A stretch of 58,283 nucleotides of DNA from IMG/VR virus record IMGVR_UViG_3300045988_158607, one strand, 5' to 3'. Shown here piece by piece: positions 9,005 through 24,146 of the stretch. Position numbers and translations under genes: made by a program. How positions within the stretch are numbered: the stretch's first letter is position 1; every line of letters begins with the position of its first letter. The stretch comes from a virus. The notes beneath the pieces were generated by a model. It saw nothing but the letters and a program-made list of their open reading frames with translations, had not been told where the DNA came from and did not search any database.

Positions 9005-9007
9005 CAT

Positions 9008-9030
9008 GAGGGCGAAAGCCCTCTTTTATT
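9008..9030 (+). terminator. Rho-independent terminator or attenuator
   Basis: gagggc-gaaa-gccctc followed by ttttatt. Confidence 0.7.
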
Positions 9031-9055
9031 ATCTAAATTGAAGAAAGGAAATTAA

Positions 9056-11395
9056 ATGTCTCAAAAAGGACTTTTTGGCGCAAAGCCTCGTTCAAGTAAA
9101 AAGAATGACGCTCAATTATTAGCCCAAAGAAAAAATAGGAAGCCCGCAGTCGAAGTTACTTACATTTCAGGAAATGCTTTAAAAGACGCAGTTGCTAGAG
9201 CTCGTACACTTTCAAATAGAATTCTTGGACATGTTCTTCACAGGCTTGGATTGATTACAGATGAAGCACAGCTTGAGCAGTATGTTGAAAACATGATTGA
9301 GGACGGCATAGGAGCTATTGACGTTGAGACTGACGGACTTGACACTATACATGACGAACTTGCTGGAATATGTTTTTATTCGCCTAGCCAGAAGGGAATC
9401 TATTCTCCCGTCAATCATGTCAGTAACATGACCAAGATGCGACTTAAAAATCAAATCTCTCCTGCGTTTATGACCAAGATGTTGCAACGAATTGTAGATT
9501 CAGGAATTCCCATTGTTTACCACAATTCGAAGTTCGACTTGAAGTCAATGTTTTGGCGACTTGGAGTTGAAATGAATGAGCCGAAGTGGGACACCTATTT
9601 AGCAGCAATGCTTCTAAATGAAAACGAGTCTCACAGCTTGAAAAATCTTCATTCAAAATATGTTCGAAATGAGGAAAATGCAGAGGTTGCAAAATTCAAT
9701 GACCTCTTTAAAGGAATTCCTTTCAGTTTAATTCCTCCCGATGTTGCATATATGTATGCAGCATATGACCCTTTGCAGACTTTCGAACTCTACCAATTTC
9801 AAGAAAAATATCTAACACCTGGAACAGCGCAATGTGAAGAGTATAATTTAGAGAGAGTTTCTTGGGTTCTTCATAATATCGAAATGCCTTTAATCAAAGT
9901 CCTTTTCGATATGGAGGTTTATGGAGTTGACCTAGACGAAGCTAAACTGGAGGAAATTAGAGAGAAGTTTACTAATAGCATGAATGAAGCAGAAGCTGAA
10001 TTTCAACAGCTTGTTAGTGAATGGCAGCCAGAAATTGAAGAACTTCGACAAACTAACTTCCAAAATTATCAAAAACTTGAAATGGACGCAAGAGGTCGAG
10101 TAACTGTAAGCATTTCAAGTCCCACTCAATTAGCAATTCTATTTTACGACATTATGGGACTGAAAAGTCCTGAAAAGGATAAGCCTAGAGGGACAGGTGA
10201 AAGCATAATTGAGCACTTTGACAACGACATTTCAAAAGCGCTCCTAAAATATAGAAAATATGCAAAATTAGTTTCAACCTATACTACACTCGACCAGCAC
10301 CTTGCAAAACCTGATAATCGCATTCATACCACGTTCAAACAGTACGGAGCCAAGACCGGACGTATGTCAAGTGAGGGACCGAACTTGCAAAATATTCCAT
10401 CAAAAGGCAAGGGCGCAGTTGTTCGACAAATCTTTGCAGCAAGTCCTGGTTACTATATCATTGGTAGTGACTACTCTCAACAAGAGCCTCGCTCTTTGGC
10501 TGAGCTAAGTGGTGATGAAAGTATGCGTCACGCTTATGAGCAAAATCTTGACCTATATTCAGTTATCGGCTCGAAGCTGTATGGAGTTCCTTATGAAGAA
10601 TGTCTTGAGTTCTATCCTGATGGTACGACTAACAAGGAAGGGAAAACTCGAAGAAATTCGGTCAAGTCCGTTCTTTTAGGTCTTATGTATGGGCGAGGAG
10701 CTAACTCAATAGCTGAGCAAATGAATGTGTCAGTCAAAGAGGCGAACAAGGTTATTGAAGACTTTTTCAGCGAGTTTCCTAAGGTAGCAGACTATATCAT
10801 TTTCGTACAGCAGCAGGCTCAGGACTTGGGATATGTGCAAACTGCAACAGGGCGCAGAAGACGTCTACCTGATATGAGCTTACCTGAATATGAATTTGAA
10901 TACGTTGACGCCAGCAAAAACGAAGAGTTCGACCCTTTCAATTTTAGCGACGACCAGCAAATGAGTAACAGCGTTCCTGAATATATTATCGAAGAATATT
11001 GGGCTCAACTTGACCGAGCTTGGGGATTTAAGAAGAAGCAAGACATTAAAGACCGAGCCAAGCAAGAGGGAATACTTATTCGAGACAATGGAGGAAAGAT
11101 TGCAGATGCTCAGCGTCAATGTTTGAACTCAGTCATTCAAGGCACGGCAGCTGATATGACTAAGTATGCGATGATTAAAGTTCATCGAGATAAAGAGCTG
11201 AACGAACTTGGCTTCCATTTAATGATTCCAGTTCATGATGAGCTTCTTGGTGAGGTTCCTAAAGAGAACGCTAAAAGAGGGGCGCAACGATTGACCGAGG
11301 TCATGATTGAGGCAGCAAGGGATATTATTAGTTTACCAATGAAGTGTGACCCGAGCATTGTTGAACGTTGGTACGGAGAGGAGATTGAAATTTAA
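9056..11395 (+). CDS. Family A DNA polymerase (3'-5' exonuclease + polymerase domains)
   Basis: Exo I IDVETDGL. Pol motif A DYSQQEPR, motif B RRNSVKSVLLGLMYGRG, motif C VHDELL. The N-terminus carries QKGLF. Confidence 0.95.
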   Translation: MSQKGLFGAKPRSSKKNDAQLLAQRKNRKPAVEVTYISGNALKDAVARARTLSNRILGHVLHRLGLITDEAQLEQYVENMIEDGIGAIDVETDGLDTIHDELAGICFYSPSQKGIYSPVNHVSNMTKMRLKNQISPAFMTKMLQRIVDSGIPIVYHNSKFDLKSMFWRLGVEMNEPKWDTYLAAMLLNENESHSLKNLHSKYVRNEENAEVAKFNDLFKGIPFSLIPPDVAYMYAAYDPLQTFELYQFQEKYLTPGTAQCEEYNLERVSWVLHNIEMPLIKVLFDMEVYGVDLDEAKLEEIREKFTNSMNEAEAEFQQLVSEWQPEIEELRQTNFQNYQKLEMDARGRVTVSISSPTQLAILFYDIMGLKSPEKDKPRGTGESIIEHFDNDISKALLKYRKYAKLVSTYTTLDQHLAKPDNRIHTTFKQYGAKTGRMSSEGPNLQNIPSKGKGAVVRQIFAASPGYYIIGSDYSQQEPRSLAELSGDESMRHAYEQNLDLYSVIGSKLYGVPYEECLEFYPDGTTNKEGKTRRNSVKSVLLGLMYGRGANSIAEQMNVSVKEANKVIEDFFSEFPKVADYIIFVQQQAQDLGYVQTATGRRRRLPDMSLPEYEFEYVDASKNEEFDPFNFSDDQQMSNSVPEYIIEEYWAQLDRAWGFKKKQDIKDRAKQEGILIRDNGGKIADAQRQCLNSVIQGTAADMTKYAMIKVHRDKELNELGFHLMIPVHDELLGEVPKENAKRGAQRLTEVMIEAARDIISLPMKCDPSIVERWYGEEIEI

Positions 11396-12354
11396 TGCAG
11401 AAATCACTATTTTTAAAGAAGCCTGAATTGAAGGTCTGGGCTGGAAGGTCGTTTAGAAAGGTCACGATTGATGACTATGGAATTTTTCGAAAGTTTGCAA
11501 AGCTTCGAAAAAAGGTTTCATATTATGGCTCAGCTTCACACTTCATGCACTATTGGAATACAGGGAATTATCAACTATTCATCAACGTCGATTTTGAAGA
11601 AACAGGTGAGCTGATTCCCATTGCTAAGAAGTTCTCAAACGCTGTTCAGTTTCATATAGTTGACCCAATTTGTGAAAACTTCGAAACTATTATAGCCCTT
11701 TGCGAAAGTCTCAAAAAAGAGGCTGTGAAAGGGGTATTTGTTAGATACATATATGAGGAACAGATTGAACCTTATGAAAATTGCGAAGTATTTGAGAAGT
11801 ACGGGACAGTTGAAAAGGAATTCATTTATGACTTGAATGAGCAATCAAACCTGCCTGGCAAGAAATTCGCATCGTATCGAAAAAAGATAAATCAGTTCGA
11901 GCGGACAAATAATCTTGAAATAAGATTTTTGACAAAAGACGATGTTGAAGCAAATGAAAAATTCCTTGATGAATGGATTGAGGGAGTAGGACCAGACTAC
12001 TTTAGACCGTCAGTTGGAAAAGACCGACGATTGATTAGAATGTTCGCTCAGGGCGATGAGTGGGATTTCACAATCGGTGCATTTGATGGCGAGCGCCTCG
12101 TCGGTGTCGTCAGCTCGTCAATTGACCCTGATACTGGCACAATGTGTGGAATTTATTCGAAGTGTCTTCGAGGTTATGGAAATCTTTCACAATATCTTGA
12201 AAGACTTTCGAGCCAAGAGGGTCTAAAACGAGGAGCCGTCGTTGAGAATTATAGTAGTGCCTCAGGCTCAAGCGCTGGAATACGAAATCACAAATTGATG
12301 AGAAAGCCTTGTGACTTTTGGAATTTCCATTCTTTCAAATATGTAGGAGAATAG
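11395..12354 (+). CDS. DUF2156 / LPG-synthase-C-like tandem-GNAT-fold protein, paralog A
   Basis: EFIYDLNEQSNLPGKKFASYRKKINQF and the C-terminal G..AGIRNHKLMRKP match my recollection of the DUF2156 pattern (D-Y-x-Y..L..L.GKK....R..xN.F ... GL..fK....P). N-terminus is MQKSLF. Confidence 0.55.
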   Translation: MQKSLFLKKPELKVWAGRSFRKVTIDDYGIFRKFAKLRKKVSYYGSASHFMHYWNTGNYQLFINVDFEETGELIPIAKKFSNAVQFHIVDPICENFETIIALCESLKKEAVKGVFVRYIYEEQIEPYENCEVFEKYGTVEKEFIYDLNEQSNLPGKKFASYRKKINQFERTNNLEIRFLTKDDVEANEKFLDEWIEGVGPDYFRPSVGKDRRLIRMFAQGDEWDFTIGAFDGERLVGVVSSSIDPDTGTMCGIYSKCLRGYGNLSQYLERLSSQEGLKRGAVVENYSSASGSSAGIRNHKLMRKPCDFWNFHSFKYVGE

Positions 12355-12356
12355 GC

Positions 12357-13322
12357 ATGCAGAAATCGTTATTTAAGAATAAAGCTGAAACTCTTTCAGC
12401 TGGAAAAAGAACTTTTAGAGCCGTTACATTTGATGACCTTTCAATTTTTCAAGAGTTCAATCTTCAACGGGAGCGGATTGTTCAATTCGTATCTTCAAAC
12501 TATATGCTCCATTATTGGAATTGTGGAAATTATAGACTATTTATCAATGAGGATTGGGAAGCGACAGGCGAGCTGATTCCAATAGCTCGAAAATATAAAA
12601 ACGTCCCTCAATACTTCATTGTCGCGCCTATTGTTGAAGACTCTGCAACCCTTTCATTGATTTGTAAAGACCTTGAAAAATTGACAGCTAAAAGCGTTAG
12701 AATTAGATATATGATTCCAGAAGAAGCCGAGCTCGTTAATTTTGGAGACTTTTCAATTAGACGGCAGGGAGATAAGGAATATATCAATAACCTTGAAGAA
12801 CAGGTCCAGTTGAATGGAAGCAAATTTAAACGACTCCGTCAGGCTATTAGGCACGGTCAAAGACAGAATCCTAATATTGTTTTCAAGATAATGGAGCCTA
12901 GCGACACTGAAAGAGTTGAAAAATTTCTTAAAACTTGGCTCAATGTAAGAGGAAAAGATTATTTTAGACCTTCAATTGGAAATGATATCAACCAGATTAA
13001 CCTATTTAATCGTGACATGGGGCATACATTCTGTCTTCTAGCCCTTGATGGTGAAGATGTTGCGAGCGTGTATATGGAAGCCGGAGAGCCTGGAACTGAG
13101 TACTCATGTTGCACACTTGCAAAAACACTTCCTCAATATACTGACCTGAGCTATTGGACATTTTTAGAAGCTAAGAAAGAGGCTCTTTCAAGAGGCTTCA
13201 AAATCGAAAACATTGGAATGAGTTCGAGCCCTGGAGGAAAAGCATATAAGATGAGATGGAATCCATTTGATACTTATAGATTTTATGAGGCAATATATTT
13301 AGGAGAGAATAATGAAAATTAA
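12357..13322 (+). CDS. DUF2156 / LPG-synthase-C-like tandem-GNAT-fold protein, paralog B
   Basis: Clear paralog of 11395-12354: HYWN.GNY.LFIN, TGELIPIA.K and DYFRPS.G.D are shared. I chose the ATG at 12357 after a GGAGA RBS. N-terminus is MQKSLF. Confidence 0.55.
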   Translation: MQKSLFKNKAETLSAGKRTFRAVTFDDLSIFQEFNLQRERIVQFVSSNYMLHYWNCGNYRLFINEDWEATGELIPIARKYKNVPQYFIVAPIVEDSATLSLICKDLEKLTAKSVRIRYMIPEEAELVNFGDFSIRRQGDKEYINNLEEQVQLNGSKFKRLRQAIRHGQRQNPNIVFKIMEPSDTERVEKFLKTWLNVRGKDYFRPSIGNDINQINLFNRDMGHTFCLLALDGEDVASVYMEAGEPGTEYSCCTLAKTLPQYTDLSYWTFLEAKKEALSRGFKIENIGMSSSPGGKAYKMRWNPFDTYRFYEAIYLGENNEN

Positions 13323-13833
13323 ATTATACTCAATTTCATATATAGCATTAGTGGTTATTGCCAACCTTGTCACCATTTATTTCGAGCCATTAAATGTAGC
13401 AGGAATTCTAATCCCTCCAAGCAGTTGGTTTATGGGATTTACATTCCTTCTTATCAATCTAATTAGCAGGTACGAGAAGCCCAAATTTGCAGGCTCTTTG
13501 ATATGGGTGGGCTTATTCCTTACCTCTTTGATTTGCCTTATGCAGAACTTACCTCAATCGCTTGTCGTGGCTTCTGGGGTCGCATTTTGGATAAGCCAAA
13601 AGATAAGCGTTCTTCTATTTAATAAGTTGTCGAATTATTATCAGGCAGCTTGGGTCAATTCCTGCTCAAGTTTTGTCGGCTCAGTTATAGATGCAACTAT
13701 TTGGATTGCACTTGGGTTGAGCCCTTTGGGAATTGGAACAGTTGCTTATATCGATATTCCTTCAGCTGTATTGGGACAGGTTGCTGTTCAATTCATATTG
13801 CAGTCAATTGCTTCGAAATACTTGAAAAAATAG
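13312..13833 (+). CDS. YhhQ/DUF165 (VUT-family)-like membrane protein; putative 7-deazaguanine precursor transporter
   Basis: Multi-TM protein. ALVVIANLV...P...G and SQKISVLLFNKL...W..S...GSVIDATIW parallel the E. coli YhhQ pattern (Q..D..vFn.L...W...S..g..Dt..F). Confidence 0.55.
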   Translation: MKIKLYSISYIALVVIANLVTIYFEPLNVAGILIPPSSWFMGFTFLLINLISRYEKPKFAGSLIWVGLFLTSLICLMQNLPQSLVVASGVAFWISQKISVLLFNKLSNYYQAAWVNSCSSFVGSVIDATIWIALGLSPLGIGTVAYIDIPSAVLGQVAVQFILQSIASKYLKK

Positions 13834-13860
13834 TCGGGAACTTCCTGATTATTTTTTTTT
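13834..13860 (+). terminator. Weak rho-independent terminator preceding early promoter 2
   Basis: tcggga-act-tcctga (one G.U pair) followed by ttattttttttt. Confidence 0.45.
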
Positions 13861-13891
13861 CAAAAAAGTTGAAAATTTTTGTAAAAAGTGC

Positions 13892-13920
13892 TTGACTATA
13901 TTCGTTCATTATCGTATAAT
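13892..13920 (+). promoter_or_regulatory. Class I (early) promoter copy 2: TTGACT-17 nt-TATAAT
   Basis: ttgact 13892-13897, tataat 13915-13920. Conserved cassette flanks are present. Confidence 0.8.
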
Positions 13921-13950
13921 GTATTTATAAATAATAAAGGAGAACATGAA

Positions 13951-14166
13951 ATGAACACAAGACTTATCGCACTAAAAAGAATGGCAGATAACAAAGGACT
14001 TGAAATTTGCTTAAAAAGCCCAGAGGGGGAACAACTTGCAGTTCCAGTTGAACAAGCAATGAAATATGTAGCAATTAGAACATTTAAAATTCTGGCTGAT
14101 AAGGTAGAAGCGACAACGGTTCTAAAAAAGGATGAATATCTTTTCCATTTTGGCAATCTTGTTTAG
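13951..14166 (+). CDS. Small hypothetical early protein (71 aa)
   Basis: ATG at 13951 after an AAAGGAG RBS. The longer track ORF from 13888 would translate the promoter itself. Confidence 0.6.
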   Translation: MNTRLIALKRMADNKGLEICLKSPEGEQLAVPVEQAMKYVAIRTFKILADKVEATTVLKKDEYLFHFGNLV

Positions 14167-14180
14167 ACTGTTTTAATTGC

Positions 14181-14210
14181 TTAACAAAATAACTGACATT
14201 CGTGTATAAT
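14181..14210 (+). promoter_or_regulatory. Class II promoter: TTAACA-18 nt-(GTG)TATAAT, upstream of the que operon
   Basis: ttaaca 14181-14186, cgtgtataat 14201-14210. Confidence 0.65.
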
Positions 14211-14272
14211 ATATATGAGGCAGTTTTGTAGAACCTGACATCCTGCTAAATAAAAATAAAGGAGGCTCGAAC

Positions 14273-14794
14273 ATGAGTCAAAACACTACTCGAACAGACG
14301 CTGAATTGACAGGCGTCACACTTTTAGGAAACCAAGATACGAAATATGATTATGATTATAATCCCGAAGTTCTTGAAACTTTCCCTAACAAGCATCCTGA
14401 AAATAATTATCTTGTAACATTTGACGGATACGAATTCACTTCACTTTGCCCTAAAACTGGACAGCCTGATTTTGCAAATGTTTTCATCAGCTACATTCCA
14501 AATGACAAGATGGTTGAATCGAAATCATTGAAATTGTACTTATTCAGTTTCCGTAACCACGGTGATTTCCACGAAGATTGCATGAACATTATTTTGAATG
14601 ATTTGTATGAATTGATGCAGCCTAAGTATATTGAAGTGATGGGACTATTCACTCCACGTGGAGGAATTTCAATCTATCCTTTTGTAAACAAGGTCAATCC
14701 TGACTTCTCAAATCCTGAACTTGAACAGCTTTCACTTCAACGAAAAATGAACTTTTTAGGCAGCGTTCACACTTTGGGAAGAGCTATTCGATAG
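14273..14794 (+). CDS. queF: NADPH-dependent 7-cyano-7-deazaguanine (preQ0) reductase QueF, unimodular type
   Basis: Catalytic-Cys context [13 protein letters not shown] and the QueF motif [16 protein letters not shown]. Confidence 0.85.
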
Positions 14795-14803
14795 GAGGTT
14801 GAA

Positions 14804-15490
14804 ATGAAATCAGTCGTTTTATTGTCAGGCGGAGTTGACTCTGCTACCTGCTTAGCAATCGAAGTTGATAAATGGGGAGCTAAAAATGTTCACGCAATTG
14901 CATTCAACTATGGGCAAAAGCATGAAGCTGAACTTGAAAATGCTGCTAATGTTGCAATGTTTTATGGAGTGAAATTTTCAGTTCTTGAAATTGACTCGAA
15001 AATTTACTCAAGCTCTAACTCTTCTCTTCTAAAGGGAAAAGGTGAAATTTCGCACGGCAAAACCTATGCAGAAATTTTAGAAGAAAAAGAAGTTGTCGAC
15101 ACCTATGTCCCATTTAGAAATGGATTAATGCTTTCACAGGCTGCTGCTTACGCTTACTCAGTGGGAGCTGATATCGTAGTATATGGAGCCCACGCAGACG
15201 ATGCAGCAGGGGACGCATACCCCGATTGCACTCCAGCTTTCTATCATTTTATGGATAAGGCAATTTACTTTGGAACTGGTCAAAAAGTTCATCTTCAAGC
15301 TCCATTGCTTACCTTGTCGAAATCGCAGGTTGTGAAATGGGGACTTGAGCTTGACGTTCCTTACTTCCTAACTCGTTCATGTTACGAAAGTTCAAATGAA
15401 AGTTGTGGAACTTGCGCAACTTGTATTGACCGCAAAAAGGCATTCACTGAAAATGGGATGACCGACCCTATACATTACAAGGAGAACTGA
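14804..15490 (+). CDS. queC: 7-cyano-7-deazaguanine synthase QueC
   Basis: PP-loop LLSGGVDS. C-terminal Zn cluster CYESSNESCGTCATC. Confidence 0.9.
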   Translation: MKSVVLLSGGVDSATCLAIEVDKWGAKNVHAIAFNYGQKHEAELENAANVAMFYGVKFSVLEIDSKIYSSSNSSLLKGKGEISHGKTYAEILEEKEVVDTYVPFRNGLMLSQAAAYAYSVGADIVVYGAHADDAAGDAYPDCTPAFYHFMDKAIYFGTGQKVHLQAPLLTLSKSQVVKWGLELDVPYFLTRSCYESSNESCGTCATCIDRKKAFTENGMTDPIHYKEN

Positions 15491-15491
15491 T

Positions 15492-16007
15492 ATGAAAGTT
15501 TCGAAAACATTAACATTCGACGCAGCTCATCAATTAGTTGGGCATTTTGGGAAATGTGCAAATTTGCATGGACATACTTACAAGGTCGAAATTTCACTAG
15601 CTGGAGAAACGGTTCAACACGGTTCTAGCAAAGGCATGGTCGTTGACTTCTATCATGTTAAGAAGATAGCTGGAAAATTTGTCGACAGGCTTGACCATGC
15701 TGTCCTACTTCAAGGCAACGAGCCTATCTTCCTGAAAGATGCAGTTGATACGAAGCGTGTCATCTTTGGTTTTAGAACCACGGCAGAGAATATGTCAAGA
15801 TTTCTTACTTGGACACTTACTGAGCTCATGTGGCAATACGCTCGTATCGATTCAATTAAACTTTGGGAAACTCCTTCAGGTTGTGCAGAATGTTCGTATT
15901 ATGAAGTTTTCACAGATGAGGAAGTTGAAGTGTTCAAGAACGTGAAATTTATAGAAGGCGACAGCGAGGTTACTGTTCGAGACCTTTTGGGAGGAGAGCA
16001 TGGTTAA
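15492..16007 (+). CDS. queD: 6-carboxy-5,6,7,8-tetrahydropterin synthase QueD
   Basis: FDAAHQL...C.NLHGHTY zinc/His motif typical of PTPS/QueD. Confidence 0.85.
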   Translation: MKVSKTLTFDAAHQLVGHFGKCANLHGHTYKVEISLAGETVQHGSSKGMVVDFYHVKKIAGKFVDRLDHAVLLQGNEPIFLKDAVDTKRVIFGFRTTAENMSRFLTWTLTELMWQYARIDSIKLWETPSGCAECSYYEVFTDEEVEVFKNVKFIEGDSEVTVRDLLGGEHG

Positions 16008-16794
16008 TCAGTACAATCAGCCTGAGAGGGGAAAAATTCGAATAAATGTTCGTGACCCTGAAAAAATGCCCATCATGGAAATCTTCGGTCCTACAATTCA
16101 GGGCGAAGGAATGGTTATTGGTCAAAAAACCATCTTTATTAGAACAGGTGGATGCGACTATCATTGTAACTGGTGCGACTCTGCATTCACTTGGAATGGA
16201 ACTACTGAGCCTGAATACATTACAGGTGAAGAAGCTGCTAGCCGAATTTTGAAACTAGCTTTCAATAAAAACGGCGAACAGATTTGCAACCATGTTACCC
16301 TGACAGGAGGAAATCCTGCCTTAATAAATGAGCCTATGAGCAAAATGATTTCAATTTTGAAAGAAAGGGGATTTAAGTTCGGGCTTGAGACTCAAGGAAC
16401 TAGATTTCAAGAATGGTTCAAGAATGTCAGCGACATCACTATTAGTCCAAAACCTCCTTCAAGTGGAATGCGAACTAATATGAAAATTCTTGAAGCGATT
16501 GTAGATAGGCTGAACAGTGAGAACCTTGACTGGTCATTCAAGATTGTTATTTTCGACGAGAATGACCTAGCTTACGCTCGAGATATGTTCAAGACCTTTG
16601 AAGATAAGTTGCCTGAGGTTAATTATCTTTCTGTCGGGAATGCTAACGCTTACGAAGAAGGGAAGATAAGTGACAGGCTTCTTGAAAAGTTGGGATGGCT
16701 TTGGGATAAAGTGTATGAAGACCCTGCTTTTAACAATGTTCGACCATTGCCTCAGCTTCATACACTTGTTTACGATAATAAAAGAGGAGTATAG
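16000..16794 (+). CDS. queE: 7-carboxy-7-deazaguanine synthase QueE (radical SAM)
   Basis: FGPTIQGEG and the cluster motif GGCDYHCNWCDS. Confidence 0.9.
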   Translation: MVNQYNQPERGKIRINVRDPEKMPIMEIFGPTIQGEGMVIGQKTIFIRTGGCDYHCNWCDSAFTWNGTTEPEYITGEEAASRILKLAFNKNGEQICNHVTLTGGNPALINEPMSKMISILKERGFKFGLETQGTRFQEWFKNVSDITISPKPPSSGMRTNMKILEAIVDRLNSENLDWSFKIVIFDENDLAYARDMFKTFEDKLPEVNYLSVGNANAYEEGKISDRLLEKLGWLWDKVYEDPAFNNVRPLPQLHTLVYDNKRGV

Positions 16795-16795
16795 A

Positions 16796-17428
16796 ATGAA
16801 AATTGAACAACTAGATAAAATTGGTGAACTATTAGGAAGAGAAAATGGCTTTTCTTCCCTCAAGACAACTGAAATTGTCGCACTTGACAACACTGAGTCA
16901 GCTATTCAAATTCTATTTGGATTATTGGGCGAAGACTCTAAACGCGATGGTCTACAAGAGACACCTTTCAGGTTCGTGAAAGCACTGGCTGAGCATACCG
17001 TAGGATATAGAGAAGACCCTAAACTGCACCTAGAAAAGACCTTCGATGTTGACCATGAAGACCTTGTTCTTGTAAAGGACATTCCTTTCAACTCGCTGTG
17101 CGAACACCATCTTGCGCCATTTGTAGGAAAGGTGCATATTGCATATATTCCTAAAGACAAGATTACAGGGCTTTCAAAATTCGGTCGCGTAGTTGAGGGA
17201 TATGCTAAACGACTTCAAGTTCAAGAACGTCTTACTCAACAAATAGCTGACGCCATTCAGGAAGTTCTCAATCCTCAAGCTGTTGCAGTTATTATCGAGG
17301 CTGAGCATACTTGTATGAGCGGACGTGGAATTAAGAAACATGGAGCGACTACGGTAACTTCAACAATGCGAGGTCTTTTCCAAAATGACGCATCAGCTCG
17401 AGCTGAGTTGATGCAGCTTATTAAGTAG
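16796..17428 (+). CDS. folE: GTP cyclohydrolase I (FolE)
   Basis: GLQETPFR, FNSLCEHHLAPF, GLSKFGR.V...A.RLQVQERLT. ATG at 16796 after a GAGGAG RBS. Confidence 0.9.
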   Translation: MKIEQLDKIGELLGRENGFSSLKTTEIVALDNTESAIQILFGLLGEDSKRDGLQETPFRFVKALAEHTVGYREDPKLHLEKTFDVDHEDLVLVKDIPFNSLCEHHLAPFVGKVHIAYIPKDKITGLSKFGRVVEGYAKRLQVQERLTQQIADAIQEVLNPQAVAVIIEAEHTCMSGRGIKKHGATTVTSTMRGLFQNDASARAELMQLIK

Positions 17429-17437
17429 GAGGCGAAG

Positions 17438-17923
17438 ATGAATAAAAGTGCAACTCTCTGGCTTGTTCGAACAGCTCTTATCGCTGCTTTGTATGTGACA
17501 TTAACCATTGCATTTTCTGCAATCAGTTATGGACCTATTCAATTTAGAATTAGTGAGCTTCTAATTCTTTTGCCTTTGTGGAACCATAGATGGACTCCGG
17601 GAATTGTTATGGGGACAATTATTGCAAATCTCTTTTCACCTCTTGGCTTAATTGATGTTCTTTTCGGCTCATTTGCTACATTTCTTGGAATTGTTAGCAT
17701 GACAAGAGTCGCTAAAATGTCAAGCCCAATATACTCACTCTGCTGTCCAGTTCTCGCCAATGCTTATATCATCGCACTTGAACTTCGAATTGTCTATTCA
17801 TTGCCATTTTGGGAATCAGTTATCTATGTAGGAATTAGTGAAGCAATTATCGTTCTAATTGGCTACTTCGCTATCTCAACCATGGCAAAGAACAGCTCAT
17901 TTAGGAAAATGATAGGAGCGTAG
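17438..17923 (+). CDS. queT: QueT-like membrane protein (ECF-type queuosine-precursor S component)
   Basis: Multi-TM 161-aa protein. TALIAALYVTLT...GPIQFRISE resembles the COG4708/QueT family. Lies within the que operon. Confidence 0.65.
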   Translation: MNKSATLWLVRTALIAALYVTLTIAFSAISYGPIQFRISELLILLPLWNHRWTPGIVMGTIIANLFSPLGLIDVLFGSFATFLGIVSMTRVAKMSSPIYSLCCPVLANAYIIALELRIVYSLPFWESVIYVGISEAIIVLIGYFAISTMAKNSSFRKMIGA

Positions 17924-17925
17924 AT

Positions 17926-18858
17926 ATGTCATTCAATATATACTTTGCAGGGAACCATGCAAACGCTACTGATGATTTCTTTATGAAGCGTCAAGCCAAC
18001 CGACTTTTCAATCAGCTGTTTGAGCGAAAGTCGATTGGGGAAAAATATCTTCGCCATAAACTCGAAGTTCCAGATACTAAGGCAAAACTATTTGTCGACT
18101 CAAGTGCCTTCTCTGCCCATACTTTGGGAAGCGAAGTTGACATTGACAGCTATATTGAATATGTCAATGCTAATCAAGGCATGTTCGACTGTATAGCTGA
18201 GCTAGATAAAATTCCAGGTGAGTTTCGAAAGCCCAAGACACGAGAACAGCTTTTAGAAGCACCTGAAATTTCTTGGAACAATTATCTTTATATGCGCGAC
18301 CGAGTTATAGATAATGACAAGTTGCTACCTATTTTCCACATGGGAGAGGATTTCAAATGGCTTGAACTCATGCTCGAAACTACATTTGACGGGAAGCATA
18401 TTCCTTACATTGGAATTTCTCCAGCCAACGATTCTGTTCCTAAGTACAAAGACAGATGGTTCGAACACGTTTTCGACATTATTCGAAAAAGTTCAAATCC
18501 TGATGTTAAGACGCACGCATTTGGAATGACAGCACTTGAACAGCTGGAGCGCCATCCGTTTTATAGCGCAGACTCGACTTCAGTTATTATGACAGGGGCA
18601 ATGGGAAATATCTATTCATCAGCTGGACTAATTGACTTTTCAAGAAAGAGTGGAGGAATTCATAATTTCGAAATGCTTGATAAGTCTGTTCAAAAAGAAA
18701 TTCTTGAAACCATTGAGCGCGCAGACGAGGGCTTTAATGTTGAAAATATGGTTGAGCATCACCAATGGCGAGCCATCTATAATATTCAATTCATTTTAGA
18801 TTGGGCTGAGAACTATGAGTTCAAAGGGATTAAAAATCGTCAACGTCGACTATTTTAG
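17926..18858 (+). CDS. dpdA: DpdA-like (TGT-superfamily) DNA 7-deazaguanine transglycosylase
   Basis: TGT-like motifs FVDSSAFS, HAFGMT and SADSTS. Last gene of the que operon. C-terminus ends ...NRQRRLF. Confidence 0.7.
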   Translation: MSFNIYFAGNHANATDDFFMKRQANRLFNQLFERKSIGEKYLRHKLEVPDTKAKLFVDSSAFSAHTLGSEVDIDSYIEYVNANQGMFDCIAELDKIPGEFRKPKTREQLLEAPEISWNNYLYMRDRVIDNDKLLPIFHMGEDFKWLELMLETTFDGKHIPYIGISPANDSVPKYKDRWFEHVFDIIRKSSNPDVKTHAFGMTALEQLERHPFYSADSTSVIMTGAMGNIYSSAGLIDFSRKSGGIHNFEMLDKSVQKEILETIERADEGFNVENMVEHHQWRAIYNIQFILDWAENYEFKGIKNRQRRLF

Positions 18859-18884
18859 CAAGGGTGAAATTCCCTTGTTTTTTT
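18859..18884 (+). terminator. Rho-independent terminator ending the que/dpdA operon
   Basis: caaggg-tgaaatt-cccttg followed by ttttttt. Confidence 0.8.
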
Positions 18885-18905
18885 CAACTTTTTGCACAAA
18901 AGTGC

Positions 18906-18934
18906 TTGACTTTATTCGTTCATTATCGTATAAT
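18906..18934 (+). promoter_or_regulatory. Class I (early) promoter copy 3: TTGACT-17 nt-TATAAT
   Basis: ttgact 18906-18911, tataat 18929-18934. 18883-18934 is a perfect inverted copy of 31456-31507. Confidence 0.8.
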
Positions 18935-18964
18935 GTATTTATAAAATAAGTAAAGGAAAAGATT

Positions 18965-19204
18965 ATGAGAAAGATAGTAACCTACGAAGAATATCAAGGC
19001 ATTGTTGAATTTAAGAAAAATTTGTCTTCAAATTTGCGCGAAGGGAAAATAGATGTCGATAACGCAATTATTCAATTATTCACCTATTATAGTTTTCACA
19101 ATGTTGAAGAGCCTCCATTTATCGTTTTAAGAATGCAGGAGGCTGCTGTGAATGGAACTTACGAGGCAAAACTGAATATGCTTCGACATTTTAAAATTAT
19201 TTAG
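18965..19204 (+). CDS. Small hypothetical early protein (79 aa)
   Basis: First ORF after early promoter 3. AAAGGAAAAG RBS. Confidence 0.6.
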   Translation: MRKIVTYEEYQGIVEFKKNLSSNLREGKIDVDNAIIQLFTYYSFHNVEEPPFIVLRMQEAAVNGTYEAKLNMLRHFKII

Positions 19205-19211
19205 AAATGGG

Positions 19212-19241
19212 TTTACAATTTCGCTCTAATTCGTGTATATT
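19212..19241 (+). promoter_or_regulatory. Class II promoter: TTTACA-18 nt-(GTG)TATATT
   Basis: tttaca 19212-19217, tcgtgtatatt ending at 19241. Confidence 0.65.
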
Positions 19242-19270
19242 ATATATATCAAATAAAGGAGGCTCATAAT

Positions 19271-20344
19271 ATGAGTATTAAGTTCAAGACAGAAGAACTT
19301 TCAAAAATTGTTTCGCAGCTCAATAAGTTGAAGCCTAGCAAATTGCTAGAAATCACAAATTATTGGCATATCTACGGTGATGGTGAATGTGTTATGTTCA
19401 CAGCCTATGACGGTTCGAATTTTCTTCGATGCGTCATTGAAAGCGATGTTGAAATTGACGTGATTGTCAAGGCAGAGCAGTTTGGAAAACTTGTAGACAA
19501 AACCACTGCAGCGACTATTACATTAGTTCCTGAAGACTCTGCATTGAAAGTTATCGGGAATGGTGAATACAATATCGACATCGTTACTGAAGATGAAGAA
19601 TATCCTACCTTTGACCACCTATTAGAAGATGTCAAAGAAGATGACGCATTGACGTTGAAGAGTTCGCTATTCTACGGGATTGCAAACATCAACGATTCTG
19701 CCGTGTCAAAATCGGGAGCTGATGGCATTTATACAGGGTTCTTGCTAAAAGACGGGAAAGCCATTACAACAGACATCATTCGCGTATGTATCAACCCGAT
19801 TGAAGAAAAAGGTTTGGAAATGCTTATTCCTTACAACCTAATGACCTTGTTAGCTAGCATTCCTGATGAAAAGATGTACTTCTGGGCACTTGACAGCGAT
19901 ACCATTTATATCTCATCTGCAAGTGTTGAAATTTACGGTAAATTGATGGAAGGTCTTGAAGAATATGAAGATGTTTCTCAGCTTGACCAGATTGAATTTG
20001 TCGACAATGCAGCCATCCCGACAGCTCAAATCATGAGCGTATTAGACCGTCTTGTTCTATTCACTTCAGCTTTTGACAAGGGGACTGTCGAATTCATTTT
20101 CTTGAAAGACCGACTTCGAATTAAAACTTCTACAAGCAGTTATGAAGACATCATGTATGCAGCTGCTGGCAAAAAGGTTTCGAAAAAGGAATTCACTTGC
20201 CACCTTAACAGCCTACTCTTGAAGGAAATTGTATCAACTGTCACCGAAGAGAACTTCACTGTTTCTTATGGAAGCGAGAACGCGATTAAGATTTCATCAA
20301 ATGGTGTCATTTACTTCTTAGCACTTCAAGAACCTGAAGCTTAA
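19271..20344 (+). CDS. DnaN-like sliding clamp (DNA polymerase III beta-type)
   Basis: 357 aa. The N-terminal pattern IKFKTEEL..IV..L / F.AYDGSNF / V.A..FGKLV / L.V.G.G.Y.I....EEYPTFD parallels the DnaN domain I layout. Confidence 0.7.
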   Translation: MSIKFKTEELSKIVSQLNKLKPSKLLEITNYWHIYGDGECVMFTAYDGSNFLRCVIESDVEIDVIVKAEQFGKLVDKTTAATITLVPEDSALKVIGNGEYNIDIVTEDEEYPTFDHLLEDVKEDDALTLKSSLFYGIANINDSAVSKSGADGIYTGFLLKDGKAITTDIIRVCINPIEEKGLEMLIPYNLMTLLASIPDEKMYFWALDSDTIYISSASVEIYGKLMEGLEEYEDVSQLDQIEFVDNAAIPTAQIMSVLDRLVLFTSAFDKGTVEFIFLKDRLRIKTSTSSYEDIMYAAAGKKVSKKEFTCHLNSLLLKEIVSTVTEENFTVSYGSENAIKISSNGVIYFLALQEPEA

Positions 20345-20346
20345 TA

Positions 20347-21123
20347 GTGGTCAAGTCGAATTTAACTAGAATTGCAAAGATGGTTAGAGCAGGAAATAGT
20401 GAAGGTCCTGCTTCCTCTTTTGTAAATTCGCTGACCGGAGTTATTGAGCGAACTCAACCTGAATACAGCCCTTCAACATATTACAAGCCTAGCGGAGTAG
20501 GAGGGTGTCTGCGTAAAATGTACTTCGAACGTACTGGACAAGCCCTGCAAGATAATGCAGATTCAAATCTTGTTGCGATGGGTGAAGCTGGAACATTTAG
20601 ACACGAAGTTCTTCAAGAATATATGGTCAAAATGGCTGAAATTGAAAGCGACTTTGAATGGTTAAATGTAGCAGAATTTTTAGCAGAGAATCCAGTAGAG
20701 GGAACTATCGTTGACGAGCGTTTTAAGAAAAACGATTATGAAACTAAGTGTAAGAACGAACTTCTTCAACTTTCATTTCTATGTGACGGCTTAATTCGAT
20801 ACAAAGGCAAGCTCTATATTTTAGAGATAAAGACCGAAACCATGTTCAAATTCACCAAGCACACTGAGCCATATGAAGAGCATAAGATGCAAGCAACTTG
20901 CTACGGGATGTGTCTTGGAGTTGATGACGTCATGTTCCTTTATGAAAATCGCGATAATTTCGAAAAGAAGGCATACACGTTTCACATAACTGATGAAATG
21001 AAAGAACAGGTACTTGAAAAACTTACAACCTGCGAAGAGTATGTAGAGAAAGGCGAAAGTCCTAAAATTTACTGCTCTTCAGCCTATTGCCCGTATTGCA
21101 GAAAGGAAGGTCGAAACTTGTGA
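20347..21123 (+). CDS. PD-(D/E)XK (RecB/Cas4-like) exonuclease with a C-terminal Cys cluster
   Basis: D...LYILEIKT motif. N-terminal Cys plus C-terminal CSSAYCPYC, resembling a Cas4-type Fe-S ligand set. GTG start. Confidence 0.65.
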   Translation: MVKSNLTRIAKMVRAGNSEGPASSFVNSLTGVIERTQPEYSPSTYYKPSGVGGCLRKMYFERTGQALQDNADSNLVAMGEAGTFRHEVLQEYMVKMAEIESDFEWLNVAEFLAENPVEGTIVDERFKKNDYETKCKNELLQLSFLCDGLIRYKGKLYILEIKTETMFKFTKHTEPYEEHKMQATCYGMCLGVDDVMFLYENRDNFEKKAYTFHITDEMKEQVLEKLTTCEEYVEKGESPKIYCSSAYCPYCRKEGRNL

Positions 21124-21614
21124 GCTATACTGGAAAAATGTTTGAAGAAGATTTCTTCGAAAGTGCAAAACAGTTTGATGAGCAAGCACTTGTTACTCGA
21201 CTATATGACACCACTAACGGATTTCGAGGAGTTGCAAATCCTTGTGACTATATAGCTGCCTCACAATATGGAACACTTTTCATCGAGCTGAAGACTACTG
21301 CTGGCGCTTCGTTACGTTTTGAAAATATAACTGACCATCAATGGTTCCAGCTAGCACGCGCAGAGAACTGCAAATATAGCTTGGGAGGGATTCTAGTATA
21401 TTTCCAAAAGCATGAAAAGATTATATGGTATCCAGTCACTCAGCTTGAAGAAATAAGAACTTCAGGAGTTAAGAGTATCAATCCTTCATTCTTTCCTGAC
21501 CTTGGCTATGAGGTTGAATATAGGAAACGTCGAACCAGATTAGACATTCCTTTCGAAAACGTACTGAGAGCAGTTGCTTTGCATTACAAGGAGACTGAAG
21601 ATGGCAAGACCTAA
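21120..21614 (+). CDS. recU: RecU-like Holliday junction resolvase
   Basis: G..FEEDF..S, NPCDYIA...G.LF.IELKTT resembles the RecU active-site layout. I chose the GTG at 21120 (GTGA overlap; GGAAGG RBS). Confidence 0.6.
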   Translation: MSYTGKMFEEDFFESAKQFDEQALVTRLYDTTNGFRGVANPCDYIAASQYGTLFIELKTTAGASLRFENITDHQWFQLARAENCKYSLGGILVYFQKHEKIIWYPVTQLEEIRTSGVKSINPSFFPDLGYEVEYRKRRTRLDIPFENVLRAVALHYKETEDGKT

Positions 21615-22167
21615 GTTACCTCAAATTGATATAAGAGAGGAAGAGATACGCGATGCGCAAAATGTTGCAGATTCTTATGGCTCGATTATCAATAAAGTAG
21701 TTGACGAGATTGTTCAAGCAGCTTGTGGACCTCTTGATGACGCGATGACCGAAATTCAAGATGTTGTAAGCCAAAATCCGGTCATTATAGAAGACCTCAA
21801 CTACTATATAGGATATCTTCCTACTCTATTGTACTTTGCAGCCGACAGGGCAGAAATGGTTGGAATTCAAATGGACTCAAGTTCTGCAATTCGAAAAGAA
21901 AAGTATGACAATCTTTATGTCCTAGCTGCTGGGAAAACAATTCCAGACAAACAAGCTGAAACTCGAAAACTTATCATGAATGAAGAAGTTATTGAAAATG
22001 CTTATAAGCGAGCCTATAAGAAAGTTCAATCTAAACTTGAGCAGGCTGATAAAGTATTAGCATCTTTAAAACGAATTCAAACATGGCAGCTAGCAGAATT
22101 AGAGACTCAATCTAATAATTCAAAAGGAGTATTAAATGTTAAAAGACGTAAACGTGAAAATGATTGA
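21601..22167 (+). CDS. Hypothetical protein
   Basis: ATG at 21601 after an AAGGAG RBS. 188 aa. Confidence 0.6.
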   Translation: MARPKLPQIDIREEEIRDAQNVADSYGSIINKVVDEIVQAACGPLDDAMTEIQDVVSQNPVIIEDLNYYIGYLPTLLYFAADRAEMVGIQMDSSSAIRKEKYDNLYVLAAGKTIPDKQAETRKLIMNEEVIENAYKRAYKKVQSKLEQADKVLASLKRIQTWQLAELETQSNNSKGVLNVKRRKREND

Positions 22168-22627
22168 CCCGAAACTTGACCGACTGAAATTTACAGGCGA
22201 TTGGGTTGATGTTCGAATTAGTTCAATTACAGAACTCGACGCTACTAGCGAGCAAGTTTCGAAATGTCGAACAATTCTTCAAAAAGCTCAAGTCTGTCCT
22301 ATTAAGGCAGGCGAAAGCATTAAGATTGCTCACGGCTTCGCACTTGAGTTGCCTAAAGGGTATGAAGCTATTCTTCATCCTCGCTCAAGCCTTTTCAAAA
22401 AGACGGGACTAATCTTCGTTTCAAGTGGAGTTATTGATGAGGGATACCGTGGTGATACTGATGAATGGTTCTCAGTATGGTACGCGACACGCGATACCGA
22501 GCTATTTTTCGACCAGCGAATTGCCCAATTTAGAATTCAGGAAAAGCAGCCTGATATTCGATTTAATTTTGTCGAGTCCTTGGGAAATAGCGCTCGAGGA
22601 GGGCATGGAAGCACGGGAGATTTTTAA
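22136..22627 (+). CDS. dut: dUTP diphosphatase
   Basis: Motif III SGVIDEGYRGD. C-terminal RGGHGSTG motif V. Confidence 0.8.
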   Translation: MLKDVNVKMIDPKLDRLKFTGDWVDVRISSITELDATSEQVSKCRTILQKAQVCPIKAGESIKIAHGFALELPKGYEAILHPRSSLFKKTGLIFVSSGVIDEGYRGDTDEWFSVWYATRDTELFFDQRIAQFRIQEKQPDIRFNFVESLGNSARGGHGSTGDF

Positions 22628-23787
22628 TGAAATTAGAACAGTTGATGAAGGATTGGAATAAGGACTCGAAAGCCCTTGTAGCAGTTCAAGGTCTTGAACG
22701 TGAAGCGCTTCCAAGAATTCCATTTTCTGCTCCTTCAATGAATTTTCAAACGTATGGCGGACTTCCTCGAAAAAGGGTAGTCGAATTCTTCGGTCCTGAG
22801 TCTAGTGGAAAAACCACTTCAGCTCTCGACATTGTCAAGAATGCTCAAATGGTCTTTGAGCAAGAATGGGAACAGAAGACGACCGAGCTGAAAGAACGTC
22901 TTGAAAATGCGCGTGCTTCTAAAGCCAGCAAGTCTTCTATTAAGGAGCTTGAAATGCAGTTGGACAGTCTTTTAGAGCCCCTTAAAATTGTATATCTCGA
23001 CCTTGAAAATACTTTGGACACTGAATGGGCGAAGAAGATTGGAGTAGATGTTGACAACATTTGGATTGTTCGACCTGAAATGAATAGCGCAGAGGAGATA
23101 CTTCAATACGTTCTAGACATTTTCGAAACAGGCGAAGTCGGGCTAGTAGTTTTAGATTCCTTGCCTTACATGGTCAGCCAAAACCTAATGGACGAAGAAT
23201 TGACTAAAAAGGCTTATGCAGGAATTTCAGCTCCTCTTACAGAATTTAGTCGAAAAGTTACTCCACTTCTTACCAGATACAATGCCATCTTTTTAGGTAT
23301 CAATCAAATTCGAGAAGACATGAATAGTCAGTATAACGCATATTCAACTCCAGGTGGTAAGATGTGGAAGCACGCTTGTGCCGTTCGACTAAAATTCAGG
23401 AAAGGTGACTACCTTGACGAAAATGGCGCAACATTGACACGGTCAGCTCGAAATCCTGCAGGTAACGTTGTCGAGTCTTTTGTAGAGAAGACAAAAGCAT
23501 TCAAGCCTGACAGGAAATTGGTTTCATACACTCTTTCATATCATGAAGGAATTCAAATTGAAGCTGACCTTGTAGATGTTGCAGTTGAATTTGGAGTTAT
23601 CCAAAAAGCAGGAGCTTGGTTCAGTATTGTCGACCTTGATACTGGAGAAATTATGGCTGATGAAGATGATGAGCCATTGAAATTTCAGGGCAAGGCAAAT
23701 CTTGTTAGACGTCTAAAAGATGATGACTATCTATTTGATATGATAATGACTGCGGTGCATTCCATCATCACTCAAGAAGACGGTTAA
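22627..23787 (+). CDS. recA: RecA-like recombinase
   Basis: Walker A FGPESSGKTT, Walker B LVVLDSL, and INQIRE loop region. Confidence 0.85.
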   Translation: MKLEQLMKDWNKDSKALVAVQGLEREALPRIPFSAPSMNFQTYGGLPRKRVVEFFGPESSGKTTSALDIVKNAQMVFEQEWEQKTTELKERLENARASKASKSSIKELEMQLDSLLEPLKIVYLDLENTLDTEWAKKIGVDVDNIWIVRPEMNSAEEILQYVLDIFETGEVGLVVLDSLPYMVSQNLMDEELTKKAYAGISAPLTEFSRKVTPLLTRYNAIFLGINQIREDMNSQYNAYSTPGGKMWKHACAVRLKFRKGDYLDENGATLTRSARNPAGNVVESFVEKTKAFKPDRKLVSYTLSYHEGIQIEADLVDVAVEFGVIQKAGAWFSIVDLDTGEIMADEDDEPLKFQGKANLVRRLKDDDYLFDMIMTAVHSIITQEDG

Positions 23788-24146
23788 TGCAAAAATCTTT
23801 ATTCGGTTCGAAGACAGTTCCCGTCGTTAAGAAAAGAATGGTGAGAACTGTCCCAAAACCTAAAAAACGAATTGATGGACAAGTGGTTGAGCTGATGAAC
23901 CGCAGAGAGCGTCAAGTTCTTGTCCACAGTTGTATCTATTATTATTTTAATGACTCAATTATAGGAGACACGCAGTATGATAAATGGAGCCACGAACTTC
24001 ATTCGCTAATAGTTTCACATCCCGAAGAGTTTCGTGAAACTGTTCTTTTCGAAGAATTTAAACAGTTCGACGGGAATACAGGGATGGGGCTGCCTTATGA
24101 CTGCGCGTTTGCTGTACGAGTTGCAGAAAGGCTTTTGAAAAAATGA
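23787..24146 (+). CDS. Hypothetical 119-aa protein with the N-terminal motif MQKSLFGSK
   Basis: ATG overlaps the recA-like stop (TAATG). Lies directly upstream of the clamp-loader genes. Confidence 0.6.
   Translation: MQKSLFGSKTVPVVKKRMVRTVPKPKKRIDGQVVELMNRRERQVLVHSCIYYYFNDSIIGDTQYDKWSHELHSLIVSHPEEFRETVLFEEFKQFDGNTGMGLPYDCAFAVRVAERLLKK

Follow-up and report, generated by a model that had tools for sequence, protein, structure and literature searches.

Terminal QxxLF-type tags in a Dp-1-like Streptococcus phage suggest tethering of DNA polymerase, DpdA, and candidate hypermodification enzymes to a sliding clamp

The bacterial beta sliding clamp is bound by its partners via QL[SD]LF-like peptides, which may be terminal or internal, as seen in the C-termini of Pol II and Pol IV, the N-terminus of Hda, and the QAMSLF element of the clamp-loader subunit delta. 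In this system, which also includes Pol V, MutS/MutL, and LigA, Q occupies position 1 and L-F positions 4 and 5 of a peptide on a flexible terminus, and one clamp cleft serves several clients. The phage clamp gp45 of T4 and RB69, which has a phage loader, acts as a toolbelt; short hydrophobic C-terminal tails (gp43, gp33, and gp55) recruit the polymerase and non-replicative clients to it. The PCNA clients DNMT1 and UNG2 are DNA-modifying enzymes tethered to a clamp at the fork by a PIP box. The present study deals with the IMG/VR virus record IMGVR_UViG_3300045988_158607 (58,283 nucleotides; this whole stretch is called the window). It was found that five of its proteins carry a pentapeptide of the form Q-[KR]-x-L-F at an extreme terminus: a family A DNA polymerase, two DUF2156-like paralogues, the DNA guanine transglycosylase DpdA, and a solo Nlig-Ia protein. 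These tags are probably clamp-binding motifs that tether the five proteins to the phage clamp, with DNA modification taking place on nascent DNA.

The window resembles the bacterial system in the positions of Q and L-F, in the flexible termini, in the several putative clients per cleft, and in a delta-like subunit with an internal look-alike. It differs in that position 2 is basic (K or R, versus L in the consensus QL[SD]LF) and in that the receptor would be a phage-encoded clamp. As in T4, both a clamp and a loader are encoded by the phage. However, gp45 is a PCNA-like trimer, whereas the clamp of the window is of the DnaN type with three domains per chain, and the T4 clients couple late transcription, not base modification, to replication. 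The likeness to DNMT1 and UNG2 is one of concept. There, the motif is the PIP box Qxx[LIM]xx[FY][FY] and the chemistry is methyl transfer or uracil excision, as against guanine base exchange in the window; the clamp and the domain of life are different as well. The bacterial Dpd system (DpdA, the ATPase DpdB, and DpdC) also uses a TGT-family DpdA that puts 7-deazaguanine into duplex DNA after replication. Bacterial DpdA needs its partner ATPase DpdB, and no DpdB-like gene was seen in the phage loci fetched. In contrast to the bacterial enzyme, phage DpdA has a clamp-type tail and is encoded near a clamp gene, which suggests another way of engaging DNA. None of the client types in the window (replicative polymerase of family A, DNA transglycosylase, DUF2156 enzyme, and stand-alone ligase domain Ia) is, to my knowledge, an established clamp partner.

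The window is a Dp-1-like Streptococcus siphophage. Its positions 9000-26900 are 82% identical in nucleotide sequence to Streptococcus phage Dp-1 at a query coverage of 70%, and phage MS1 is a more distant match. All five tagged genes lie on the plus strand. The polymerase (9056-11395) starts with MSQKGLFG, of which QKGLF is encoded by nt 9062-9076. The DUF2156-like proteins A (11395-12354) and B (12357-13322) both start with MQKSLF (motifs at nt 11398-11412 and 12360-12374), and the Nlig-Ia protein of 119 residues (23787-24146) starts with MQKSLFG (nt 23790-23804). DpdA (17926-18858) carries its tag at the other end, where NRQRRLF is followed by the stop codon (motif at nt 18841-18855). The tagged terminal peptides are KGIKNRQRRLF-COOH, MSQKGLFGAKPR, MQKSLFLKKPE, MQKSLFKNKAE, and MQKSLFGSKTV. 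Thus, the motif occurs once as QKGLF, three times as QKSLF, and once as QRRLF, and fits a Qxx[LM]F or QL[SD]LF-like pentapeptide. An earlier note on this DNA, made from the sequence alone, had claimed these five termini; on re-reading of the sequence, all of them were found at the positions it gave. The note had also proposed a permutation test and a comparison with related phages, and both came out in its favor, as described below.

The motif was defined after the sequence had been viewed, and it might be a chance match to a short pattern picked post hoc. Among 75 curated proteins (18,221 amino acid residues), QxxLF occurs seven times, and five of the seven copies start at residue 2 or 3 or end at the C-terminus. 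When each protein was shuffled 3,000 times and copies within 10 residues of a terminus were counted, none was obtained in 2,671 shuffles, one in 317, and two in 12, which was the maximum. The Poisson expectation of 0.12 corresponds to P of about 2e-7 for at least five copies, or about 8e-6 for at least four copies when the paralogues are collapsed. Of the two internal copies, DUF2156-B has QINLF and a tail protein has QVELF; both look like background. Since the motif is also conserved independently in dozens of diverged homologues, chance coincidence was rejected and its probability is negligible.

A duplicated DNA segment was likewise ruled out as the source of the common N-termini. When the DNA of the four N-terminal regions was aligned, the likeness was confined to the motif codons, and these show synonymous differences (CAA/CAG, TCA/TCG/TCT, CTA/TTA, and TTT/TTC). 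Therefore, selection acted on the repeat as protein. In the polymerase, Nlig-Ia, and DpdA, the tag lies outside the folded part: the polymerase and Nlig-Ia are matched by Pfam domains from residues 67 and 33 onward, respectively, and the DpdA tail is modeled as a coil. Dp-1 and MS1 keep all three tags that are possible for them (polymerase, DpdA, and Nlig-Ia), and so do six close relatives in IMG/VR. With the DUF2156 homologues and most DpdA homologues also retaining the tag, the pattern of substitutions suggests that Q, L, and F are under purifying selection while the x positions are free.

The DpdA tail was analyzed in most detail among homologues. The DpdA of the window belongs to PHROG 887 (4.5e-54), is 70% identical to Dp-1 gp7, and has no Pfam match at E<0.01. 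Its AlphaFold2 (AF2) model has a mean pLDDT of 93.1, and the closest folds are ArcTGT and TGT (probability 1.0), that is, a TGT-like TIM-barrel. After the last helix (residues 279-295), residues 301-310 are modeled as a coil with a pLDDT of 62. Thus, the tag is predicted to lie on a flexible tail outside the barrel. Among the best 120 homologues (48-98% identity), 107 are full-length unfused proteins. It was revealed that 96 of these 107 tails end in LF-COOH and 75 in QxxLF-COOH, and that LF occurs within the last six residues in 103. The variants include RQRRLF, KQNRLF, YQRRLF, and KQKKLF, and the Dp-1 and MS1 proteins end with RQRRLF or KQNRLF preceded by differing flanks. The enzyme of the window presumably inserts a 7-deazaguanine base into DNA; in Dp-1, about 1.7% of the guanines are dPreQ1 (PMC6884629), and the dPreQ1 baseline of that phage is about 3,389 per 10^6 nt.

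The polymerase has a 3'-5' exonuclease domain (Pfam DNA_pol_A 1.9e-86 and DNA_pol_A_exo1 1.8e-15), and its tag is part of a basic tail about 60 residues before the exonuclease domain. The orthologues start with MAQKGLFG (Dp-1 and MS1) or MVQKGLFG. More distant polymerases of the supergroup start with MRTLFK, MGRLDKLFK, MPLFN, or (L)FQNSLFK, and two lineages have MGLL. In one relative (L014 5753-10004), the polymerase gene is in three pieces, split by HNH and GIY-YIG homing-endonuclease genes, and the HNH protein within this split gene ends with NNNRLF.

The two DUF2156-like genes follow the polymerase gene directly. Both match the DUF2156/LPG_synthase_C family (PF09924, cut-off 27.5 bits), protein A at 2.7e-11 (43.5 bits) and protein B at 7.6e-07 (28.9 bits). 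The start codon of gene B is the ATG at 12357, which has an AGGAG ribosome-binding site, and a longer ORF starting from the TTG at 12318 falls within gene A. The two paralogues are only 39% identical (BLASTP 7e-71), and nonetheless both start with MQKSLF. In a collection of 5.8 billion proteins, only four homologues were found, all in Dp-1-like oral phages and all directly 3' of polA. They start with MQKSLF, MQKFLF, MTQKMLF, and MSQLTLF; Q, L, and F are invariant, with variation at the x positions. The pair is absent from Dp-1 and MS1 and is an insertion relative to both. In the six close IMG/VR relatives, starts of the MQxxLF type were found solely on the polymerase and Nlig-Ia genes. The pair has no match to a PHROG family, and the DUF2156 profile gave nothing significant against PDB sequences (the best relevant match was 2hqy, E 0.18). 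The two proteins resemble aminoacyl-tRNA-dependent transferases like the C-terminal part of MprF. Their presumed role is to decorate the aminomethyl group of dPreQ1. The resulting aminoacylated dPreQ1, if true, would be an undescribed hypermodification.

The fifth tagged protein consists of the NAD+-binding domain Ia of LigA alone (PF22745 2.7e-26, residues 33-118; PHROG 6466), with a basic linker of about 30 residues behind the tag. Its orthologues start with MQKSLFG (Dp-1), MAQRTLFS (MS1), MKQRTLFA, or MQKSLFSG. Solo Nlig-Ia proteins were clustered at 50% identity, and 150 representatives were surveyed with 2,000 shuffles. LF lies within residues 2-9 in 26 of the 150 (expected 3.9, shuffle maximum 12; e.g., MKQKTLF, MQRRLF, MALF, and MSLF). 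LF-COOH was found in 15 of the 150 (expected 0.6, shuffle maximum 5; e.g., KQIKLF, VQRKLF, VQASLF, and KQQTLF). The occurrence of the LF tag at either end of homologous proteins is typical of a short linear docking motif and is hard to reconcile with a structural or translation-initiation role. The solo Nlig-Ia family has been described in 81 phages, and its members were proposed to be free NAD+ sensors (Iyer, Burroughs, Anantharaman and Aravind 2022, PMC9503650). The available part of that account, which treats the same stand-alone family, mentions no terminal clamp tag, whereas about a quarter of the representatives are LF-tagged here. In Dp-1, this protein is gp16, annotated as 'DNA ligase' (L001 9805-10218), and the RefSeq start codon precedes the conserved MQKSLFG start by 54 nt. 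The RefSeq start is probably mis-annotated; the relatives and independent gene calls use the MQKSLFG start. The label 'DNA ligase' is misleading because only domain Ia is present.

These data also bear on the idea that there is no common receptor, the LF of DpdA being structural or catalytic and the MQKSLF starts reflecting an A/T-rich initiation context or shared N-terminal ancestry. The codons after the ATG are indeed A-rich, and the LF element is kept internally in DpdA-QueF fusions. However, the DpdA tail is modeled apart from the barrel, as a coil of low confidence, and DpdA proteins without a clamp gene in the fetched flanks have no tail (see below), so that a structural role of the tail is unlikely. 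Moreover, synonymous variation with fixed Q, L, and F indicates selection on amino acids, the Nlig-Ia homologues are also tagged at the C-terminus as expected of a portable motif, and in the Cellulophaga phage phiSM the DpdM protein is tailed while DpdA is not. Taken together, the absence of any common receptor is very improbable.

What would be the receptor of the tags? The gene at 19271-20344 (plus strand) is the proposed one. Its product belongs to PHROG 947, 'DNA polymerase processivity factor' (9e-54), whereas the single sequence has no Pfam match. The AF2 model of the monomer (pLDDT 90.7, pTM 0.86) has three domains, and in Foldseek the bacterial beta clamps come on top (TM 0.79-0.85, about 0.82; E about 1e-24). 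A profile of 30 clamp homologues matches the beta clamps of S. aureus and B. subtilis at 1e-23 to 1e-22 (1.6e-23 against PDB beta clamps). The phage clamp is only 13-17% identical to cellular DnaN. Thus, to judge from the model and the profile, the gene product is a genuine DnaN-type three-domain beta clamp. Three loader genes lie on the same strand: a DnaX (gamma/tau)-like ATPase (24143-25168; Pfam DNA_pol3_delta2 5.8e-29, AAA, and DNA_pol3_gamma3), a delta'-like subunit (25170-26009; DNA_pol3_delta2 5.9e-11), and a delta (HolA)-like subunit (26002-26895; DNA_pol3_delta_C, with a phmmer match to B. subtilis delta 3zh9 at 1.3e-4). The earlier note had assigned a DnaN-like clamp to 19271-20344 and a DnaX/HolB/HolA-like loader to 24143-26895; the former assignment is borne out by fold, family profile, and PHROG, and the latter by the Pfam matches.

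The delta-like subunit has an internal QKGLV (nt 26164-26178) within LTQKGLVSNRR (nt 26158-26190), which mirrors SQKGLFG of the polymerase. At the aligned position, the relatives have TQKGLVS, TQRSIVA (MS1), TSKMLCN, TTRTFGR, or TTKGLFS (Bacillus phage Flasso). I take this element to be the equivalent of QAMSLF in E. coli delta. The delta-like wrench subunit must contact the phage clamp, and its TQKGLVS may serve as an internal control for the tag.

Alternatively, the tags may be directed to the DnaN of the Streptococcus host, the phage clamp serving the polymerase alone or nothing in this context. QxxLF is the generic bacterial consensus, phage DpdA works in E. coli without the phage clamp, and the cleft-lining segment of the phage clamp is unlike cellular ones. 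Phage proteins that use host beta are known, namely, Twort Gp168 (PDB 7evp) and MuC of phage Mu (PMC12867686). These two are like the proteins of the window in using the surface or cleft of a clamp. In contrast, they use or block the clamp of the host, for late transcription or inhibition, whereas the phage of the window has its own clamp with replication and modification clients. The full set of clamp and loader genes and the look-alike TQKGLVS in the phage delta-like subunit argue against a host receptor. In addition, LF-tailed DpdA is accompanied by phage genes for a clamp or a clamp-like protein in many lineages whose hosts differ widely, and the flavor of the motif tracks the phage lineage, not the host. 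Thus, the host clamp is an unlikely receptor.

Is the association of tailed DpdA with a clamp common in other phages? DpdA has 806 homologues at E<=1e-5. From 182 phage records with a DpdA homologue, a sample was drawn. In 11 lineages of it that are outside the Dp-1 group of the window, a clamp or clamp-like gene adjoins dpdA or is a few kb away, with PolA or PolB as a neighbor, and in 10 of the 11 DpdA has a QxxLF-like tail of the LF, LW, or LL type. DpdA ends with QGKLF in Bacillus phage Flasso, EQRLF in Rhizobium phage RHph_N17, KQSLW in Edwardsiella phage ZHS, QQYLFGGL in Pseudanabaena phage Pan1, PVLF in Synechococcus phage Yong-L2-223, and QQYLLGDL in Dinoroseobacter phage R26L. In Queuovirinae, it ends with VMELF (Escherichia phage CAjan), IQELF (Pseudomonas phage NP1), VQELF (Pseudomonas phage MiCath), or TQGLF (Vibrio phage AQKL99). 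The clamp-like gene of R26L is an unannotated ORF of 310 amino acid residues, similar at its C-terminus to the Pan1 clamp. In Mycobacterium phage Bipper and Arthrobacter phage Mufasa8, the fetched 6-7 kb flanks of dpdA hold no clamp gene, and the DpdA proteins end with KENGQ and GVTFD, respectively. In Queuovirinae-type phages, polymerases encoded next to the clamp-like gene share an N-terminal GLFW/GFFW element: MRTDAIGFFWQD, MRKDSLGLFWRD, MRADALGLFWED, MRADALGLFWQD, MSRWDTTGLFWDD, and MPRWDNVGLFWQD (loci L020 13930-15915, L019 14153-16351, L024 9944-12124, L025 9739-12000, L021 14256-16307, and L030 8724-10721). This element may be a clamp tag of its own or part of the fold.

The exception among the 11 lineages is phiSM, whose DpdA has no tail and whose dnaN is in the same gene string. 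It was found that phiSM gp53, which has the CxxxCxxCC signature of DpdM, ends with QVNLF, and that an adjacent protein with a ParB-like nuclease domain ends with SVNLF (L023 7212-7865 and 8585-9049). DpdM is an experimentally validated dPreQ1 methyltransferase according to published work. Thus, a known hypermodifying enzyme appears to carry the tag, in parallel to the DUF2156 pair. The flavor of the motif is common to unrelated clients of one phage, basic Q[KR]xLF in the window and VNLF in phiSM, and this sequence pattern argues for one receptor per phage.

The single receptor might be another hub, such as a RecA/UvsX-like recombinase, a helicase, SSB, a protease, or a chaperone. The docking partner is deduced from sequence, and other replisome proteins of the window have conserved aromatic C-terminal tips (GRGF in SSB and VEAF in DnaB), so that several docking systems may coexist. 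Against this, the polymerase itself is tagged, and the clamp is the only known hub of polymerases, ligase-related factors, and DNA-modifying enzymes. The motif also fits the beta consensus, and the co-occurrence across lineages is specifically with clamp or clamp-like genes. A hub other than a clamp is quite unlikely.

As for the aromatic tips themselves, SSB (8276-9004) ends with TRGRGF, DnaB (5145-6476) with EGVEAF, dUTPase (22136-22627) with GSTGDF, and a protein of 159 residues (3595-4074) with KFEGFY. In a relative (L013 1665-2513, 3178-4449, and 6823-7605), the DnaB, HTH_36 initiator-like, and SSB-like proteins all end with EVF. These tips may represent a second, separate terminal docking code. 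The helicases of Pseudomonas phages MiCath and NP1 end with DDDIPF, the CAjan helicase with DPDYVPF, and the phiSM VirE protein with DEDDVPF (the loci of the PF-ending helicases and primases are L019 4955-6754, L024 21-1796, L020 3559-5535, and L023 3607-4833). DDDIPF is the C-terminal tip of E. coli SSB, and these phage helicases and primases seem to carry mimics of the SSB tail.

Several observations weigh against tethering to the phage clamp. First, Q is not universal: many DpdA homologues have [KR]xxLF, and some polymerases start with MRTLF, MPLF, or MGLL. Second, DpdA-QueF fusions (518-543 amino acid residues; e.g., L015 6816-8447) retain the tail element at the junction as [KR][KR]xL[FI], often with LI, which could mean that the element serves DpdA itself. 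(Another conserved tail, [QR]xLxELxxGF, closes the fusion proteins.) Third, the cleft-lining segment of the phage clamp is TTDIIRV, versus ATDSHRL in Firmicutes, and YTG replaces LTG; in an alignment that leaves out the C-terminal strand, T, D, and R are kept, and the S/G and H positions have become I. Fourth, the Queuovirinae 'clamp' rests mainly on database annotation (for the CAjan 'beta subunit', the Pfam match is sub-threshold, and hhalign gives a probability of 6% against the Dp-1-type clamp family). Fifth, que genes are part of replication modules, which may account in part for the adjacency of dpdA and clamp genes, and the clamp-less controls are two actinophages of which the flanks alone were inspected. 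Finally, in published heterologous expression in E. coli, phage DpdA modifies plasmid DNA with no phage clamp present. Therefore, tethering would make the reaction more efficient or better targeted, and the chemistry itself would not depend on it. On the other side, every computationally testable prediction of the toolbelt idea came out positive, and the idea is supported to that extent. The near-identical promoters of the que/dpdA operon and the clamp operon, described below, also speak for it.

How would tethering to the phage clamp work? The Q-[KR]-x-L-F tags on flexible basic tails would dock into the hydrophobic cleft of the DnaN-type clamp of the phage, which presumably is the receptor in place of the host clamp. 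The three-subunit loader (24143-26895) would place clamp dimers at primer ends of phage DNA, where the family A polymerase would dock via its N-terminal tag for processivity. Nlig-Ia, DpdA, and the DUF2156 enzymes would be recruited to the other cleft of this dimer or to clamps that stay on the finished duplex, and clamps riding with or behind the fork would become a toolbelt for these four non-polymerase clients. The solo Nlig-Ia protein would probably work with nick sealing or NAD+ handling. DpdA, fed by the preQ1 supply genes, would exchange G for preQ1 in fresh duplex DNA, and the DUF2156 paralogues would then decorate the aminomethyl group. In this way, modification would be coupled to replication.

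The gene order around the tagged genes is that of Dp-1. Genes for a helicase, a primase, a sigma factor, SSB, and the family A polymerase are followed by a queuosine-precursor operon with dpdA as the last gene, and then by genes for the clamp, nucleases, dUTPase, a RecA-like recombinase, the small 'ligase' protein, and the three loader subunits. The preQ1 supply genes (14273-17923, plus strand) encode QueF, QueC, QueD, QueE, FolE, and a QueT-like transporter, as assigned from the ORFs and from synteny with and annotation of Dp-1 gp1-gp6. A sigma-70-type promoter (TTGACT, 17 nt, TATAAT; 13891-13920, plus strand) lies 5' of the queF-queC-queD-queE-folE-queT-dpdA operon. A second copy of 30 bp (18905-18934, plus strand) lies 5' of the operon with the clamp, the recombination genes, Nlig-Ia, and the loader. 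These two copies are alike over 44 bp except for one A/T position. In total, the 30-bp promoter CTTGACTWTATTCGTTCATTATCGTATAAT has five copies, at 32-61(+), 13891-13920(+), 18905-18934(+), 31456-31485(-), and 34228-34257(-). A terminator-like hairpin followed by a T-run (18857-18879, plus strand) closes the que/dpdA operon, and another lies behind the SSB gene (9008-9023). Some other proteins of the window have degenerate candidate motifs that were not counted as tags; two of these are LF starts. MERIKTLF at 28699-28983 is conserved in Dp-1 gp23 and MS1 gp20, M(TEM)ITLF at 29863-30177 corresponds to MITLF of Dp-1 gp26 and is absent in MS1, and the RecU-like protein has GKMF as a degenerate candidate. 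The small proteins at 28699 and 29863 may be further clamp clients, or the LF may be part of their fold.

Both the class of motif and the concept of a toolbelt are established; the proposed clients and the proposed clamp-coupled base-exchange modification are new. The earlier note had stated that such coupling was undescribed, and no publication linking DpdA to a clamp was found. A literature search for DpdA with 'sliding clamp' returned a general review and a mycobacteriophage genome report, with neither term in the title or abstract. In the abstracts listed for 7-deazaguanine with clamp, the two are not linked, and those retrieved for DpdA with 'DNA polymerase III' or 'replication fork' address no such link. 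The clamp is unmentioned in the two main papers on phage DpdA (one of them PMC6884629), and a phage-host interactome paper of 2016 is silent on both the clamp and the gene products in question.

In phages, 7-deazaguanine modification protects DNA from restriction, and DpdA has to find and open duplex DNA, with no DpdB-type ATPase seen in the fetched phage loci. The occurrence of the DpdA tail and a nearby clamp gene across very different phages points to a concrete mechanism, namely, replication-coupled modification on a sliding clamp. The tag flags the DUF2156 pair as candidate hypermodification enzymes, would place the solo Nlig-Ia proteins at the replisome, and marks a polymerase of family A as a probable user of a beta clamp. 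It also provides a search handle for DNA-modifying enzymes in phage genomes. More tentatively, and at slightly less than even chances, clamp tethering may be a general principle of 7-deazaguanine modification in tailed phages: DpdA and hypermodifiers such as DpdM and the DUF2156 enzymes would act processively and coupled to replication, the clamp would replace DpdB, and the pathway would end in aminoacylated dPreQ1 in the phage of the window. If true, this would help explain the extent of genome modification by phage DpdA.

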